From positions 1-31,414 of the IMG/VR virus record IMGVR_UViG_3300037478_000061: DNA of 31,414 nt, one strand, 5' to 3'. The translations under genes and the position numbers were made by a program. The first letter of the stretch is position 1, and each line of letters begins with the position of its first letter. This DNA is from a virus. Lineage: Duplodnaviria > Caudoviricetes. The notes beneath the pieces are model-generated. The model did no database searches and was not told where the DNA came from. It was given only the letters and a program-made list of their open reading frames with translations. Of this stretch, positions 20,307 through 31,050 are shown piece by piece.

Positions 20307-20775
20307 TGGCCCAAGTTTCCCTTGTCCAGTCGAAAAGGATGAAGTCTTCACCGTTCTTGCCGTAGCCGGGAAGATCGCAGCGTTCGGTTGCACCCAGCCG
20401 GTTCAGCCAGCGAAGCGCCAGTTCATTCGAGGCCAGCGCCCTTGCCTCAACCCGCCATGATCCACGTGAAGCAACCTCAGGGCCGAGCACCTCATAAAAG
20501 AACTGTGTTATCCGAGGCACACAGCGCCGCATGCGCTTCGTTCCCCAGCTCCAGGCTATCCAGAGGCCGCTACGAACCTCACCAGCGCCGAAGGCCGCTT
20601 CCGGGTTGCCATCGATCTCGACGACGTAGGCCAGGCCATGCATGGCGCTGAGAGCCAGTTCAGCTGGTGTCCAGCTATCGAACTGGCAATCTATCTCGGC
20701 GCGATCTTCAGGCCGGAGGTTGGCCGCGATGTAGGACAAATCCCGAAGATTGCCGCCGATGATGCGGACGGTCAT
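20191..20775 (-). CDS. Phage acetyltransferase-like (GNAT-fold) protein
   Basis: IAANLRPEDRAEI, N..A.RWL.RLGA and GYGKNGEDF motifs; ATGA coupling with the TerL-C stop gives a start at 20775. Confidence 0.65.
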   Translation of the reverse strand: MTVRIIGGNLRDLSYIAANLRPEDRAEIDCQFDSWTPAELALSAMHGLAYVVEIDGNPEAAFGAGEVRSGLWIAWSWGTKRMRRCVPRITQFFYEVLGPEVASRGSWRVEARALASNELALRWLNRLGATERCDLPGYGKNGEDFILFDWTRETWANVSIQQTAGSEAAPANTNSGRQGRTGPRCRIAAAACSQ

Positions 20776-21527
20776 CGATAATCGGACAGCGGATCGGACA
20801 TCTTGCCGCTCTGACGATGTGCCCTGAACGCGGCAGGATCGACAATCGAATGGCGAAGCATCATCACCCCGTAGCGAGTGGCGGACATCAGATCGTCCTT
20901 CATCTTGACCACGATCCCATCCTTGCGATGATACAGGCGGAATTCTTGAAACCATTCGTTCAGGTTGTCGAAGACCTTGAAGCGTCCGGTTTGCATCCGG
21001 TCCAGCATCGCCATAAGCCCGGCTTCGACCGAATTAGAACCGTCGCTGAACTGAGCGTGCGTGCCCAGCATGTTCAATCCGTGCTCGCCATACTGCTTTG
21101 CCAGTGCGACACCAGCGCCGGCAAGCGTCCGATTGTGCCCGTCATGCGGCCATGCCCATGGAAGCCAAGATCCCCAAGGCCGCAGCGTGATCGCCTGCAT
21201 CGCCGGCGTCTGCTGGCTTTGCCTATGGCATTTGACCACATAGACAACATCAGCTTCCGAATCCCATGCGAGCTCGACAGCGGCGGAAGGATGCTCCCAA
21301 CCGAAATCCAACCCGCCAATCCTCGGCCAGTACGGTGGCAAGCGGATTGGCGCTACCTTTATGTCCTCTTCCGGAAGAGGAAAAATCCGGCCGGAACCCA
21401 GAACAGGGATGCCCCTGGCGCGCGCCTCTCGCTCATGCGCTGGATAAGCGGCAATGACCTCTGCGCGCCTCTCTGGCGTGTAGTGTTCCGCATCGTCGAT
21501 CGTCATGAACGTGACGTGCTTGCTCAT
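20772..21527 (-). CDS. terL: Terminase large subunit, C-terminal part (end of ATPase lid plus RNase H-like nuclease)
   Basis: MTIDDAEHY, EREARARGIP.LGSG, GLDFGWEHP, WPHDG and DDLMSATRY motifs as in P22 gp2-type terminases. Confidence 0.9.
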   Translation of the reverse strand: MSKHVTFMTIDDAEHYTPERRAEVIAAYPAHEREARARGIPVLGSGRIFPLPEEDIKVAPIRLPPYWPRIGGLDFGWEHPSAAVELAWDSEADVVYVVKCHRQSQQTPAMQAITLRPWGSWLPWAWPHDGHNRTLAGAGVALAKQYGEHGLNMLGTHAQFSDGSNSVEAGLMAMLDRMQTGRFKVFDNLNEWFQEFRLYHRKDGIVVKMKDDLMSATRYGVMMLRHSIVDPAAFRAHRQSGKMSDPLSDYR

Positions 21528-22261
21528 TTCTTCGCCTTCACGAGGAGTTCGATATCTTCCTGCGAAAGGAACTGCTGAACAACGTCCGACATGCCCTTGA
21601 GCGGCGTGAAGGTGACGATGGTAATCCCGTCTGTGGCGTTGGTGCGCGTCATGCCCTCGGAATAAATGTCAGGCGGCGGCTCCTCGTCGAACCACACGCC
21701 GTGCAGTGTGTCACCTTGCCATTTGGCCCGGCCCTGCTCATAAGCCTTGAAGAGCAACGTTGATGCACCACCTGTCGTGTGCCTGACCGTCAGCGAATCC
21801 AGTGCATTCGGAACACCAGCGGCGCGCGACCACGAAAGCAATTTGTCCTTCGGGATCGCTCCCGTGCCCCACTCCTCTTCCTTCTCAGGCTCGCCAACCA
21901 TCAGCTTTTGAATGGTGCCGGCCGTCGATGTCCGACTTTCGCCGGCAGCCCACATCCTGACCGGCTCAAGGAAACGGCGTCCTACCCACCAGTCAGGATA
22001 GATGCCGGTGAGATGTATTGACCATTCGAACGAACCGGCCAGGGTCTTGCCCAACTGGTTCCCAGCCATGAACAAGCGCTCGCGGTGGATAGCACCGGCC
22101 GCGTGGAATTCCGCCTGCTTCTTGTACGGACGATAGGCGGCAAGCCTGTTAGTGCGCCGTCGTCGGTCCATCTCCGATAGGAGGGCCAGATACTCCTTCA
22201 TCGACAAGGAAAGGCCGGATGACGGATTCAAGGCTGCGGATGCGGGCTCGTAGCTCGTCAT
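21524..22261 (-). CDS. terL: Terminase large subunit, N-terminal ATPase part
   Basis: PYKKQ adenine-binding motif, Walker A AGNQLGKT, Walker B VWFDEEP and coupling motif TFTP. Start is 22261 or 22201. Confidence 0.9.
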   Translation of the reverse strand: MTSYEPASAALNPSSGLSLSMKEYLALLSEMDRRRRTNRLAAYRPYKKQAEFHAAGAIHRERLFMAGNQLGKTLAGSFEWSIHLTGIYPDWWVGRRFLEPVRMWAAGESRTSTAGTIQKLMVGEPEKEEEWGTGAIPKDKLLSWSRAAGVPNALDSLTVRHTTGGASTLLFKAYEQGRAKWQGDTLHGVWFDEEPPPDIYSEGMTRTNATDGITIVTFTPLKGMSDVVQQFLSQEDIELLVKAKK

Positions 22262-23738: not shown

Positions 23739-24253
23739 CTGAATTTCCTCCTAAGCGCCGCGATGCATGGCTTGATCGCATGGATGTCGCTGGCCTGGTT
23801 ATCGTAGAAGACTACACCGTTGAAGATCATGCGCGCCCGGCTGTCTAGCCCACTAAGCGGCTCGATCCATTCGGCGTAGCGCTTGCGGATGCTGGCGATT
23901 TGATCCTGTGACGGCTCCCCGCCGAATCCCTTGGCCGCGAGATAGTCCATGGCCTTGGGGAACGGATGCTGAGGATTGGTCAGCGCCATGAAGCGCGCCA
24001 CGGTCTGAACGTAGTCGTCGCAGACCTCGACGTCAACGAGATCGATCTGGCCCCTGAGATAGAGCCGGCCGATCTCGTAGCCGGCCAGCCTGTCGCCGGC
24101 TTGAACCAGGGTGAGCTTGTGCTGTGCCATGCGGGCGTGGACGGTGCTGGCGCGGATTTCGGCCACTGTTGCCCGCTGCGGACGCCCATTTGGTTCGCGG
24201 GCTACCTGCTTGCGGATGCGTCCGCGACGTTGCGAGCGGGTTTTCGCCTTCAT
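23735..24253 (-). CDS. Putative late transcription regulator/antiterminator (Q-analogous position)
   Basis: Basic N-terminus with REPNGR and GRLYLRGQI motifs seen in alphaproteobacterial phage late regulators; lies just before the promoter/terminator pair. Confidence 0.55.
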   Translation of the reverse strand: MKAKTRSQRRGRIRKQVAREPNGRPQRATVAEIRASTVHARMAQHKLTLVQAGDRLAGYEIGRLYLRGQIDLVDVEVCDDYVQTVARFMALTNPQHPFPKAMDYLAAKGFGGEPSQDQIASIRKRYAEWIEPLSGLDSRARMIFNGVVFYDNQASDIHAIKPCIAALRRKFR

Positions 24254-24930
24254 GTGCGGTTCTCTGCTTCGCTTTCGGCACGGATGGCGGCCGAAGTCGT
24301 TAGAAGCTCGGTGACTTCACTGGCGTATCCCTTGACCTTCGAAAGATAGTTGGCGCGGCGGTCGGCAATTCCGGCGCATCGCTCCCGCTCAGCCATAAGC
24401 GCCTCGGCGAATTCCTTGTAGAGGCGGTCGCATGGCACGTCGAAAGCGAGATAGCGCCCAGCGAATTCGGTAGCCGCCCTGTGGATGTCTTCTGGGGTGT
24501 CGCTCATCCTAGTGCTCCTCATACGTGCCGAGATCATGCGGTTGCGCTCGCGAACCCGGTCAAGGTCATAGCCGACCAGCTTGGGAAGGTTGTGGGAATC
24601 CTGATGGCTGGCGATTCCGTGCATGCAACTTGTGTGGTCGCGGGCGAACCACCGAGCGATTTGGCTGGACGATGTCTTCTTGGGATTTCGCGCCTTGATC
24701 AGGTACATGGCCTCGTTGCGAGCCTCCACGGCAACCCGAATTCGGCTGTCACCCGCTATCATTTGGATGTTGATGCCTCGATCCTTTGCCACCTGTTTGA
24801 CTATCTCCCGGATAGCCTCAGGCATGCCGCGCTTGCGAAATGCGTCAATCCCGCACCGGTTGAACTCTACCGTTGCCTTGTGAGTGCGGGAGGCGCATTC
24901 GTCGTGTCCTGAATAGGGAACTAGATACAC
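24250..24930 (-). CDS. DnaA C-terminal-like HTH protein fused in frame to an ERERCA-family small protein
   Basis: SR...V.ARNEAMY......SSSQIARWF.RDHTS..HGI matches the DnaA domain IV pattern; internal RBS and ATG at 24507. Confidence 0.75.
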   Translation of the reverse strand: MYLVPYSGHDECASRTHKATVEFNRCGIDAFRKRGMPEAIREIVKQVAKDRGINIQMIAGDSRIRVAVEARNEAMYLIKARNPKKTSSSQIARWFARDHTSCMHGIASHQDSHNLPKLVGYDLDRVRERNRMISARMRSTRMSDTPEDIHRAATEFAGRYLAFDVPCDRLYKEFAEALMAERERCAGIADRRANYLSKVKGYASEVTELLTTSAAIRAESEAENRT

Positions 24931-24942
24931 CGTGAAACTCCT

Positions 24943-25158
24943 TTACGCTTGATTTTTTCTGGTCTCATATGGGCTGAAGAGATTCAGGCGCCGGCTGCGT
25001 TCCATGGTGATCCAGCGATGAATGACTGGCTCACGGATGCCGAAGCGATGGGAAATCTGCAGGGTGTCTAGGCCGCCGGCAAACATCTCGTAGGCTCGCG
25101 CCGGTCGCTCTGCCTTCTTCTGAGCGTAAATCGCCTTTCCGTCTCTCGCCTCAAGCAT
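24943..25158 (-). CDS. Small HTH DNA-binding protein
   Basis: GLDTLQISHRFGIREPVIHRWI HTH-like pattern; AAGGAG RBS, TTG start. Confidence 0.6.
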   Translation of the reverse strand: MLEARDGKAIYAQKKAERPARAYEMFAGGLDTLQISHRFGIREPVIHRWITMERSRRLNLFSPYETRKNQA

Positions 25159-25624
25159 GTGAAATCTCCTTTCCGGGTCCGTAAATGATCCCCAACGAAC
25201 ACCAAGTCGCGCCCACCGGAATCTCCCTCGCCGCGCTCATCTTGCGCCACTGGTCGTAGGAGATGTTTTCGAACAGCACCGGCAAATGGGCGTTTTGGGC
25301 CAGCCGCTTCTGCTGCCGGATTTGGAATGGCGCGAGCGGGCCGGGGAAGAATTGCAGAGCTTTCCGTTCCGGGCGCGCCTTCATGTCGATGTATTCCTGG
25401 CGCTTGCGGGCTTCCGCTACGAACTCGGCCACGGAAGGCGCGAACGTCTTTGATTGGCCTGGCACGTCGCCCATGGTGAACCTCTGTGCTGCTTCAGTGA
25501 CGGCTTGCGGGGAAAGCCCCGACAAAACCGCTTCGTAGGTTCCCATCGTCAGGTCCGGATTCGTAGCTCCCATTGGAAAGCTGTTGAGCATGGCGGTGAT
25601 TGCCAAAAACGCCTTCTGATCCAT
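25151..25624 (-). CDS. Putative replicative helicase loader/inhibitor (P/G39P-like position)
   Basis: Y..VL.......V.EAA.RF..G......FAPSVAEF motif; overlaps the upstream initiator-like gene, as in O/P pairs. Confidence 0.55.
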   Translation of the reverse strand: MDQKAFLAITAMLNSFPMGATNPDLTMGTYEAVLSGLSPQAVTEAAQRFTMGDVPGQSKTFAPSVAEFVAEARKRQEYIDMKARPERKALQFFPGPLAPFQIRQQKRLAQNAHLPVLFENISYDQWRKMSAAREIPVGATWCSLGIIYGPGKEISHA

Positions 25625-25901
25625 TTCCGTTGATCCTGTCTTGAGCGACATCGACGTATGTGCGTCTGCCTGTGCGCTGCTGTGGCCTTGCCAGCCATTC
25701 GGCCTTAAAACCCTGCCATCCACGCAGGATCATTTCCTCGGCCGCTGCATTCGGGTCAGGGCAGAGAGCGAATTGCTTTGCCAGTAGCTTGGCAGCGAAG
25801 ACCGTCAGGGCGCATTTCTTGGTCTTGCGGTGATCTAGGACCGCTGAAGCGTGTTCAGCATCTAGGGCCGTGCCTAGGGCGGCTAGGATGTCGTCTTTCA
25901 T
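25494..25901 (-). CDS. Protein resembling only the C-terminal domain of a phage replication initiator
   Basis: DHRK.KK..LT..AAK.LAK and I.RGWQGFKAEW motifs; ATGA coupling to rusA; no N-terminal HTH and no iteron region. Confidence 0.6.
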   Translation of the reverse strand: MKDDILAALGTALDAEHASAVLDHRKTKKCALTVFAAKLLAKQFALCPDPNAAAEEMILRGWQGFKAEWLARPQQRTGRRTYVDVAQDRINGNGSEGVFGNHRHAQQLSNGSYESGPDDGNLRSGFVGAFPASRH

Positions 25902-29297: not shown

Positions 29298-29510
29298 TCA
29301 TGCTGCTCGCTCCGATTTGGAGGCGCGGCGGGCGGCGAGCATGAAGGCACGCAATTGCGCTTCCGTCTCCGGCCAGACCCGACCGCCAGCGCGAAGCCGG
29401 GCGACGATCTCGGAATTACGAACCGCCTGTTTTCCAAAGTATGACGGCCCCATTCCGGTCTCGGAAAGGAACGCTTCAATCTCGTCGAGAAGGTGATTTT
29501 TCGTAGCCAT
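29298..29510 (-). CDS. cro: Cro-like repressor
   Basis: 70 aa; LL.EIEAFL.ETGM.PSYFG..A..N...V.RLR.G motif; divergent from the cI-like gene. Confidence 0.8.
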   Translation of the reverse strand: MATKNHLLDEIEAFLSETGMGPSYFGKQAVRNSEIVARLRAGGRVWPETEAQLRAFMLAARRASKSERAA

Positions 29511-29515
29511 GGCTC

Positions 29516-29545
29516 AATCTATATCCTCTAAAGAGGACATGTCAA
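29516..29545 (-). promoter_or_regulatory. pR-like promoter of cro (probably leaderless)
   Basis: TTGACA (29545-29540) with TATAGATT -10 region ending 5 nt before the cro ATG; an operator lies between -35 and -10. Confidence 0.7.
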
Positions 29546-29591
29546 GCGTCCTTTATTGCGGACGTGCGCTATTCGCCGTTTTAGCGGATAG
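29521..29591. promoter_or_regulatory. Three OR-like 20-bp operators
   Basis: ATATCCTCTAAAGAGGACAT (29521-29540), GCGTCCTTTATTGCGGACGT (29546-29565) and degenerate TTCGCCGTTTTAGCGGATAG (29572-29591). Confidence 0.75.
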
Positions 29592-29598
29592 TCCGGCC

Positions 29599-29949
29599 AT
29601 GATTGTAACGGGATGGAGAGAGCGGCTGGCGAGGGCTGCGGAGAAAAGTGGACGGTCGCTGCGGGATATTTCCCTCAAGGCCGGCATGGGCGCCGGCTAT
29701 CTGCATGGCATCCTGGTCGAGGAGAAAGATCCGACGATCGGAAACATGCTCAAGATCGCCGACCAGATCGGAGTGAGCCTGTCCCACATCATTTATGGGA
29801 TAGAGCTTGGAGCCGACGAGGAACGTCTCCTCCGGTTTTACGCGCAGATGACGCCGCGACAGAAGAAGGCTTTTCTGGAAATGGCGCATACGACGAGCGC
29901 GACGAACGATGCGGGTACAGAAGAGAAGCTGATTTCAGAAGCCCCATGA
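29599..29949 (+). CDS. cI: CI-like XRE-family repressor without an S24 peptidase domain
   Basis: RSLRDISLKAGMGAGYL..IL....DPTI....KIA..IGVSL HTH. Start moved to ATG 29599 because the longer ORF runs through the operators. Confidence 0.8.
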   Translation: MIVTGWRERLARAAEKSGRSLRDISLKAGMGAGYLHGILVEEKDPTIGNMLKIADQIGVSLSHIIYGIELGADEERLLRFYAQMTPRQKKAFLEMAHTTSATNDAGTEEKLISEAP

Positions 29950-30364
29950 CCTTGGAGACAGGCAGCTTTTCAACCGCCTTGATGAAGTTCCTGGCATCAG
30001 TTTCGAACTGCGAGGCCTTGGACATTCTTCATCCCTTTGTTATGGTTTTTTGGTAGGACGATTTTCCTACGATAGCGTCAAGCGACATTCCTGTAAACAA
30101 GGCACGGCTATGTGAGATCGCCAGCTTTGGGGAGTGGCCTGCGCCAGGGTCAGCAAAAGCTGTCAAAGTTCGCATTGAGGCGAAGTCGTTACGGCCCCGC
30201 ATGATGTCGGTGGGTAACCTCATCACAGTATGACGGCTAATGAGATTTCGCAACACCGTAATAGACCGTGAACTGATTTTTGGGTCGCGGGCATTTAAGT
30301 AACATCTTACTTATTCCTGTTTCTACTTCTTAAGTCCCTGAAGGATTGAGAGGGAGGGTTCCTG

Positions 30365-30685
30365 CCAAAAGACCCCCCTCCCCCATAGCCTCAATCAAGA
30401 GGCCAGGAAGAAGGAGAGTCGATTGGCGAGTCCTGAAGGCCCGAGCCGGGATGGGACGCACGCCAACAGCTTCCTCTCGGAAAGCTGGTCCTCTGTTTCT
30501 GGCAGCACCGTAGGACTTTCGACCCCGCGCGCTTGTGGCTTCACCAGCAACGGATTTGCACCGTGTCGCCGCTGCGCAGAGGGAGGATGTTTTCGCTTGC
30601 GTCGGCCTTTGTGGCCTGATACATAAGCGGAGACTTATTTCATCGTCCTCTGCGCCCCGGCTGGATTTCTCCTCCGGGGCTTTTC
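30365..30685 (-). ncRNA. Candidate structured non-coding RNA (~320 nt) convergent on cI
   Basis: Multiple stems with GNRA loops and G-U pairs that work only on the minus strand; upstream TTGACA; terminal 22-bp stem followed by UUUU. Confidence 0.55.
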
Positions 30686-30689
30686 TTTT
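30654..30689 (+). terminator. Terminator-like hairpin upstream of pL
   Basis: GCCCCGG-13 nt-CCGGGGC followed by TTTTCTTTT. Confidence 0.65.
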
Positions 30690-30713
30690 GCCACAGCTCG
30701 CCGCCGCTGTCAA
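30685..30713 (-). promoter_or_regulatory. Putative promoter of the minus-strand RNA
   Basis: Perfect TTGACA (30713-30708), 17 nt spacer ending TGTGG, weak -10 CAAAAG. Confidence 0.4.
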
Positions 30714-30718
30714 AATAA

Positions 30719-30770
30719 TATCCTCTTTAGCGGTTATTCCTGTTGACATGTCCTCAATAGCGGATATTAT
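30719..30770 (+). promoter_or_regulatory. pL-like promoter with two OL-like operators
   Basis: TTGACA (30743-30748)-16 nt-TATTAT; operators ATATCCTCTTTAGCGGTTAT (30719-30738) and ATGTCCTCAATAGCGGATAT (30748-30767) match the OR sites. Confidence 0.8.
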
Positions 30771-30798
30771 TCTCCTCAGCAACCCAAGAGGAGACGAC

Positions 30799-31050
30799 AT
30801 GGCCAGCACCGACACCCAAGACGCCAACGATTGGCCGAACGAAGCCCTGACCGACATCTGCAAGCAGTTGCTCGACGATTGGGGTTTGACGCTGGCCCAG
30901 ATCGCCCTCCTCGCCCAGAACATCGCCAGCGAGTGCGAGGCCATCAACGAAAACCGCGCCGAGGAATATTGGTCGGATCGTTCCGAGCCGGACGACAGCA
31001 GCTACCGCCGCGACATGATCAACGCCGGTCGCGGGCATCTGCTCCGCTGA
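30799..31050 (+). CDS. Hypothetical early protein (83 aa, acidic)
   Basis: AGAGGAG RBS; first gene after pL; YRRDMINAGRGHLL C-terminal motif. Confidence 0.7.
   Translation: MASTDTQDANDWPNEALTDICKQLLDDWGLTLAQIALLAQNIASECEAINENRAEEYWSDRSEPDDSSYRRDMINAGRGHLLR

Follow-up and report, generated by a model that had tools for sequence, protein, structure and literature searches.

ColE1 replicates from an initiator-free origin, at which a promoter-driven non-coding RNA, RNA II, enters a persistent hybrid and thereby primes Pol I, and the passages of the source that bear on the point call the trigger for formation of that hybrid speculative (PMC5043065). A G-rich stretch upstream of the ColE1 origin is described as essential in the relevant part of a second source, which also portrays mitochondrial CSBII as an R-loop produced by transcription, with a G-tract in split form close to its end (PMC6317783). 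In plasmids, the structured motifs ARRPOF, GEBRO, and PAGEV, of 223–349 nt, are placed in replication regions by the pertinent passages of PMC5737381, ARRPOF within a Rep-independent region needed for replication, and an excerpt of PMC12990946 gives ARRPOF as a 255-nt pseudoknotted RNA.

The locus considered here belongs to a window of 31,414 nt, the whole stretch of DNA that we analyzed, a rhizobial virus record with a completeness of 54% whose structural genes are of podovirus type and whose control region is lambdoid. Lambdoid phages are thought to depend on both an O-type protein and iterons. Like lambda O/P and the DUF1376/HTH_36 initiator-iteron systems, the window keeps a C-terminal initiator domain and a loader-like partner, but it has no DNA-binding head, linker, or iterons, and a structured RNA element occupies the gap that separates pL from the 3′ end of cI. 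The comparison with ColE1 yields two likenesses. The window phage is headless and only 3/50 carriers of the element have a head, just as the ColE1 replicon encodes no origin-binding initiator, and an upstream segment of the element equals a downstream site and could pair with the template there. In ColE1, according to what Masukata and Tomizawa reportedly described in 1990, base pairing joins an upstream run of G to a run of C in the template strand. The element differs from ColE1 in having no sequence or Rfam match to RNA II or RNA I, in its length (240 nt versus 550 for RNA II), in its double pseudoknot and T-loop, in having four freely varying guide segments rather than one G run, and in its position in the immunity region of temperate phages, where the phage supplies DnaB or a headless initiator; nor was an RNA I-like partner found for it. 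With CSBII it shares a split G-tract, seen in 79/79 homologues, but here the tract forms one arm of a hairpin that covaries and is itself part of a large fold. The closest precedents among known motifs are ARRPOF, GEBRO, and PAGEV, although they come from other hosts and replicons, have no Rfam match to the element, and are not described in the source passages as carrying a self-copy of the tail such as the one reported below.

The control region shares operator palindromes between 29522–29565 and 30719–30767 and is laid out as follows.
29298–29510, minus strand: cro-like gene
29599–29949, plus strand: cI-type repressor (HTH_3 match, phrog_2967; start codon inferred), convergent with the RNA element
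30337–30574, minus strand: conserved structured RNA element of about 240 nt, with sharp conservation limits in 75 non-redundant homologues, covariation, and no Rfam family
30575–30690: variable 5′ extension, with a plus-strand terminator (30655–30690) and a window-specific stem
30685–30713, minus strand: likely RNA promoter, diverging from pL (TTGACA at 30713–08, weak −10 at 30690–85)
30719–30770, plus strand: OL operators (30719–37 and 30749–67) and pL (30743–70), the operator sequence being that of OR at 29522–29565

An earlier note on this DNA had drawn a structured minus-strand RNA over 30290–30713. A structured element on that strand is there, but homologue comparison confines its conserved part to 30574–30337, conservation beginning at 30574 and stopping at about 30337. 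The TTGACA box at 30713–30708 that was said to point into the element is present, but the −10 box behind it is weak and the promoter scan of the window did not list this promoter among its predictions; the scan also gave no plus-strand promoter within the element. Promoter-like boxes occur in 38/77 homologues, 16 of them ending 7–12 nt before P1 (the first helix of the RNA), figures that stand without a shuffle control. Behind the RNA, the window has 2 short ORFs (75 and 78 aa; 29789–30256, minus strand), the second overlapping the end of cI, for which family searches gave nothing convincing. Elsewhere in the window, the terminase large subunit appears as 2 overlapping ORFs (20772–22261, minus strand), each matching phrog_2, and this may be a split gene, a frameshift, or an assembly error.

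Pattern scans returned 19, 31, and 80 loci from viral contigs and 20 from genomes, the named ones mostly Rhizobiales; after removal of 27 no-hit loci and of 4 chance rows (L028, L030, L034, L041), the profile matches numbered 123, of which 75 were non-redundant. Four further homologues came from the initiator search and 31 from metagenomes, where 98 matches were reduced by 40 chance and 27 duplicate loci and 2 of the remainder were untestable for self-copy. The resulting 110 distinct homologues are mostly from Rhizobiales prophages, at the site bounded by pL and the 3′ end of cI. The element is present in 2/150 further genomes of the order and 0/150 of the class, and BLAST placed it in 2 GenBank phages and in prophages carried by four Pseudochrobactrum plasmids, the plasmid search yielding no copies beyond these prophage ones. 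The two phages, OM868082.1 and PP438429.1, were the only named phages matched by three variant queries and are deposited as Synechococcus phages; since they carry the element and have a gene order like that of Rhizobiales prophages, their host label may be wrong. The slot between RNA and cI is a cargo hotspot (L002–L004 and others, directly behind the element), with DUF5131 accompanied by TcmP, DUF488, or a restriction endonuclease, often in convergent pairs. In two records the RNA sits in the right operon, directly before dnaB (G098) or about 1 kb before it (G097).

A search of Rfam 15 with the whole window at gathering thresholds, and with 30000–30900 at E values up to 10, gave chance matches alone, and the element matched no family, ARRPOF, GEBRO, and PAGEV included, at gathering or below E 0.2. 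An account of it was not found in the literature covered, although it may be listed in the subscription papers and large motif-list supplements that fell outside this scope. A protein-coding reading was rejected: at most 8/46 homologues are open in any frame, lengths are spread evenly modulo 3, and the one ORF across the region (30330–30947) has no family, so that the earlier description of the gap as having no convincing gene holds among the homologues and no conserved protein frame takes the place of the RNA.

Folding of the minus strand gives z = −3.69, a value equaled by 0/100 shuffles, and folding of the plus strand gives z = −2.75, equaled by 1/100. In an alignment of 46 homologues (A5), a hand-made structure of 45 pairs has 95.2% of its 2062 cells paired, with double changes in 28/45 pairs; none of 500 shuffles scored as high, and slid controls reached 46–54%. 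One alignment pair, 77:91, keeps its pairing in 46/46 homologues through 24 double changes. G-U cells number 294 against 23 A-C cells, which identifies the minus strand as the folded one. The parts of the fold, which also includes an internal-loop domain, are these, all on the minus strand.
30488–30572: 5′ knot, from covariation and mutual information
30572–68/30539–35: P1, in the 5′ knot
30564–30550: hairpin in the 5′ knot that we take to be a T-loop
30547–44/30502–499: pseudoknot P3, in the 5′ knot
30533–29/30509–04: pseudoknot P4, in the 5′ knot
30516–12/30492–88: P5 with two extra pairs, in the 5′ knot
30467–30487: P6, a GNRA-loop hairpin (GAGA in the window), from fold and covariation
30371–30427: long G-U-rich hairpin, from covariation, its 3′ arm holding the G-tract 30384–30373

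P3 and P4 are two pseudoknot helices into the P5 loop, and this double pseudoknot covaries strongly while the knot core is nearly invariant among homologues. Several helices read from the single sequence survive this comparison. The 22-position minus-strand stem of 30420–30371 was described correctly, with one C-U mismatch, six G-U pairs, and then four U, and the GAGA-loop hairpin at 30487–30467 is recovered by the fold. Others were misplaced: the GAAA near 30517, taken for a hairpin loop, is a single-stranded pseudoknot joint to judge by the homologues; covariation supports other partners for the proposed GCAGC/GCTGC stem; and the CCTCTG/CAGAGG stem belongs to the variable 5′ extension, as does the terminator hairpin at 30655–30690. 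The G5AG6 tract at 30384–30373 is real and matches only once within the whole window, but its exact form recurs in 4/79 homologues, though a split tract of the form G3+/N1–3/G3+ recurs in all of them. The TAAGTAA inverted repeat (30313–30296) is likewise present, in a stretch of 35% GC behind the RNA, but lies outside the conserved part. The suggestion of an undescribed structured RNA class, and the recommended collection of homologues, covariation analysis, and Rfam comparison, have been borne out by the results above, and on this comparative record the element represents a real, uncatalogued family of structured RNAs whose signature of self-targeting is unusual.

That signature, absent from the earlier note, is by the alignment a four-part self-copy of the tail. 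Among the top column pairs by mutual information are 60/232 and 129/240, which covary by identity and not by complementarity. A 45-nt tail, Z′-W′-X′-Y′, is copied colinearly by four upstream segments, Z, W, X, and Y. All lie on the minus strand.
30521–30526: guide segment Z, copy of Z′, in a single-stranded joint of the knot
30462–30466: guide segment W, copy of W′ (columns 129/240 identical in 46/46)
30432–30455: guide segments X (30455–48, imperfect) and Y (30439–32, exact), copies of X′ and Y′
30337–30376: 3′ tail, the predicted template-strand target, with Z′ at 30376–71, W′ at 30368–64, X′ at 30358–52, and Y′ at 30344–37
30290–30336: purine- and AT-rich flank behind Y′, the likely unwinding or initiation zone, its sequence not conserved

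Z equals Z′ in 78/79 elements over 7 shared types, where shuffles average 22.5 and reach at most 39, and among the 29 testable held-out metagenome elements the match is 28/29, with one new type. The variable letter of W matches across its three letters. Y and Y′, compared without L087 and L112, share a mean length of 7.06 versus 5.13 when permuted (permuted maximum 5.81), and in the held-out elements 6.90 versus 5.09, new Y types being copied again; X copies X′ imperfectly, and in one subtype its mismatches fall at fixed spacing. These anchored Z and Y tests replaced a general local-alignment score for repeats, which was weak (own 25.7 vs 22.3). In the 60 nt behind Y′, 77 elements average 0.62 purine and 0.60 AT; over the following 60 nt the corresponding values are 0.52 and 0.49.

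The hairpin pairing counts 163 Watson-Crick, 57 G-U, and 17 unpaired out of 237, so the Z/Z′ identity is stricter than hairpin pairing. The 5′ arm of that hairpin is predicted to pair with Z and W early, in a short transcript, and with the G-tract, Z′, and W′ later; because Z and W would thus have an RNA partner as well, their identity with Z′ and W′ is alone insufficient to argue for DNA pairing. For Y, a partner inside its own RNA was not above background (4.45 vs 4.55 over 22 rare types), an indication of pairing to the template DNA, and the simplest candidate for a strand complementary to both copies would be that template strand.

The replication genes of the window are a headless initiator and its neighbor.
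25494–25901, minus strand: headless replication initiator of 135 aa, the C-terminal domain only (phrog_678 positions 215–300 of 346)
25151–25624, minus strand: partner gene behind the headless initiator, likely a helicase loader by its position, with no named family

No iteron array was found in or near the headless initiator, whose 84 relatives include a family of 132–140 aa, the longer ones bearing DUF1376, HTH_36, or other heads. Across 50 carrier records, taken as 17.5-kb regions where available, 34 encode DnaB, 15 an initiator C-terminal domain (14 of them headless), and 1, a truncated record, nothing. These C-terminal domains fall into two families, the second of which (L219:6993–7373 and four more) is also headless and matches phrog_270 positions 176–277 from residue 4. 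Forty-one head queries matched only the three carriers already counted as headed (G011, G023, G030), with DUF1376 in 2/50 records; L206 has one more initiator-head ORF, which is ambiguous, G026 has an HTH_36 match far from the element, and a search for hidden initiators among 48 unclustered ORFs near replication genes turned up nothing beyond the two DUF1376 genes already known and a single ambiguous ORF. In G023, G030, and G011 the RNA and a full initiator occur together, and the DnaB of G023 is 63–65% identical to that of RNA-less initiator phages, which suggests a recent module swap.

The converse sampling, 37 loci fetched by the C-terminal domain, gave 25 headed loci, 2 of them truncated by a contig end, and 12 headless. 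The RNA occurs in 0/25 headed, searched over the whole record, versus 6/12 headless (Fisher p 0.0004, ignoring kinship); two 13.7-bit model matches in G052 and G053 are counted here as chance, 15/25 headed records are less than 90% complete, and 2/6 headless positives were already in the training set. The RNA is found in 0/5 phages with DnaB followed by DUF1376-type genes, and overall in 0/30 phages with a headed initiator. Since the headless label needs just 2 changes on the domain tree, where the rows of L181 and L207 are long and unsure, the association between RNA and headlessness is not free of kinship, and a single origin of the headless state on that tree is possible. Phages with different slot contents are close relatives on the same tree.

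Six headless records have no RNA: 3 are fragments, 2 have a second element, and L170 has a lone HTH_36 gene. In the pair, a conserved non-coding element stands behind the same promoter and hairpin. This second element, unrelated to the first, occupies the pL–cI slot of initiator-less phages with a core of about 110 nt and an extent of up to about 450 nt.
L251:3790–4200, L248:925–1100, L260, L262, L264, and KT724718.1 34282–34428 (cultured phage BiPBO1): second element
It was found in 5/8 pattern matches (L257, L259, and L261 were dropped as chance), none with a head in the region covered; the L251 and L248 copies have no Rfam match, and a simple 7-mer repeat check showed no shared pattern. At L170:802–1200, a stand-alone HTH_36 head and a 15-nt tandem repeat are in the slot, 7.5 kb from the headless C-terminal half, and by this layout L170 is a split initiator with a relocated origin. 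A protein consisting of DnaA domain IV only (window 24250–24930, minus strand) occurs in 34/76 of these phages whatever the origin type; it was rejected as a substitute head, being present in 23/50 carriers versus 11/26 headed phages with no enrichment, and perhaps acts on the host origin.

Comparative sequence analysis establishes the fold, its strand, the colinear tail copy, the loss of heads in carriers, and the exchange of the slot with other modules, and it is likely that the RNA starts replication in place of an origin-binding protein. The element is probably the phage replication origin, an RNA-primed R-loop that would work like ColE1 RNA II without being related to it. An RNA- or R-loop-primed origin was what the earlier note had proposed, and the idea has gained strong comparative support, as has its fit with the headless initiator, in that carriers mostly lack an initiator head; the mechanism attached to it has changed, with the G-tract now forming the 3′ side of a hairpin that covaries and the four-part tail copy serving as the putative specific signal. 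Transcription of the RNA would most likely start at the promoter that diverges from pL. In a short transcript, Z and W are predicted to be held by the 5′ arm of the long hairpin until the G-tract, once made, takes over that arm and frees them by a strand swap. The freed Z and W, and then X and Y, may capture the template strand just behind RNA polymerase along some 45 nt, Y matching exactly and X carrying mismatches at fixed places, while the purine- and AT-rich flank would stay hybridized. Pol I could then extend a 3′-OH generated by RNase H or by termination, and helicase would be loaded on the displaced G-rich strand either by phage DnaB or by the headless initiator with its loader. The position of the promoter beside OL would tie firing to the repressor, and since that promoter is placed at OL as pRM is at OR, it is conceivable that binding of the repressor turns it on instead of off, a behavior more in keeping with a lysogenic regulator.

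A bolder version, which we hold to be possible but doubtful, is that of a protein-free RNA initiator, in which the four-part reprogrammable guide of the knotted RNA invades its own double-stranded DNA, possibly in trans and possibly by nicking it catalytically, and in many temperate phages has taken the place of the O-type initiator. Because a second, unrelated RNA fills the same slot, RNA-defined origins might on this version form a whole hidden class of phage replicons.

Among explanations that dispense with an origin, the one that fares best, although we judge it unlikely, is a cis-acting regulator of transcription, either an antiterminator like HK022 put or an R-loop roadblock or antisense RNA against cI, that would control cargo or the lysis-lysogeny switch. 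The fixed place of the element right behind a promoter beside OL and facing cI, the pRM-like geometry of that promoter, and the diverse cargo genes (DUF5131/TcmP, DUF488) that come after the element all speak for such a regulator. However, at least 16/75 loci, by a by-eye count, have no same-strand ORF between element and cI, the element also occurs in the right operon before dnaB, and a regulator would leave unexplained both the near-exclusion between RNA and initiator heads and the presence of an HTH head with a repeat in the same slot.

It is also conceivable, at rather long odds, that the element is an origin whose knot is catalytic or trans-acting, a guide-directed ribozyme that nicks or invades its own DNA for a rolling-circle or recombination-type replication. 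The loop segments of the IS110 bridge RNA match a DNA site by identity. Segments of the HYER ribozymes match a DNA site in the same way, and these group II-derived RNAs cut DNA via a 6-nt recognition site, as far as the passages of PMC12990946 go. The nearly invariant knot core with its T-loop is more than an R-loop anchor would seem to need, and guide segments are located inside the knot. In contrast to IS110 and HYER, however, no recombinase or intron core is near the element, its target is its own tail, and it is a single copy at a fixed phage locus; it also resembles no Rfam ribozyme family, and DnaB or loader genes point to theta-type loading.

We give little credence to the idea that the repeats serve an RNA-RNA conformational switch or antisense pairing with cI read-through, a small-RNA-controlled switch of unspecified output. 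It would draw on the predicted early pairing of Z and W with the 5′ arm and on the opposite-strand terminator just past the 5′ end, which is present in the window and in 10/77 homologues, but no RNA partner exists for X or Y, a second copy would be superfluous for a full antisense RNA, and at 123/234 variable Z positions the arm would let Z differ from Z′, yet only one element differs. A template for a realigning reverse transcriptase, as in telomerase or DRT10, is suggested by direct repeats that flank a hairpin and so resemble a realignment template, but it is barely credible with RVT_1 in 0/50 carrier records (divergent enzymes could be missed) and no reverse transcriptase beside any of the 75 elements.

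If the element is an RNA-primed origin, its covarying self-copy names the exact RNA-DNA pairs to be tested, and natural variants with freely changed guide letters make the ColE1-type question of what triggers the hybrid directly testable; the element may also be developed for rhizobia into an RNA-guided origin or R-loop tool that is compact and can be reprogrammed. For the phages themselves, this new RNA is common to dozens of complete prophages that encode DnaB or only a loader-binding domain and no origin-binding protein, and an RNA origin would explain their "headless" initiator genes.
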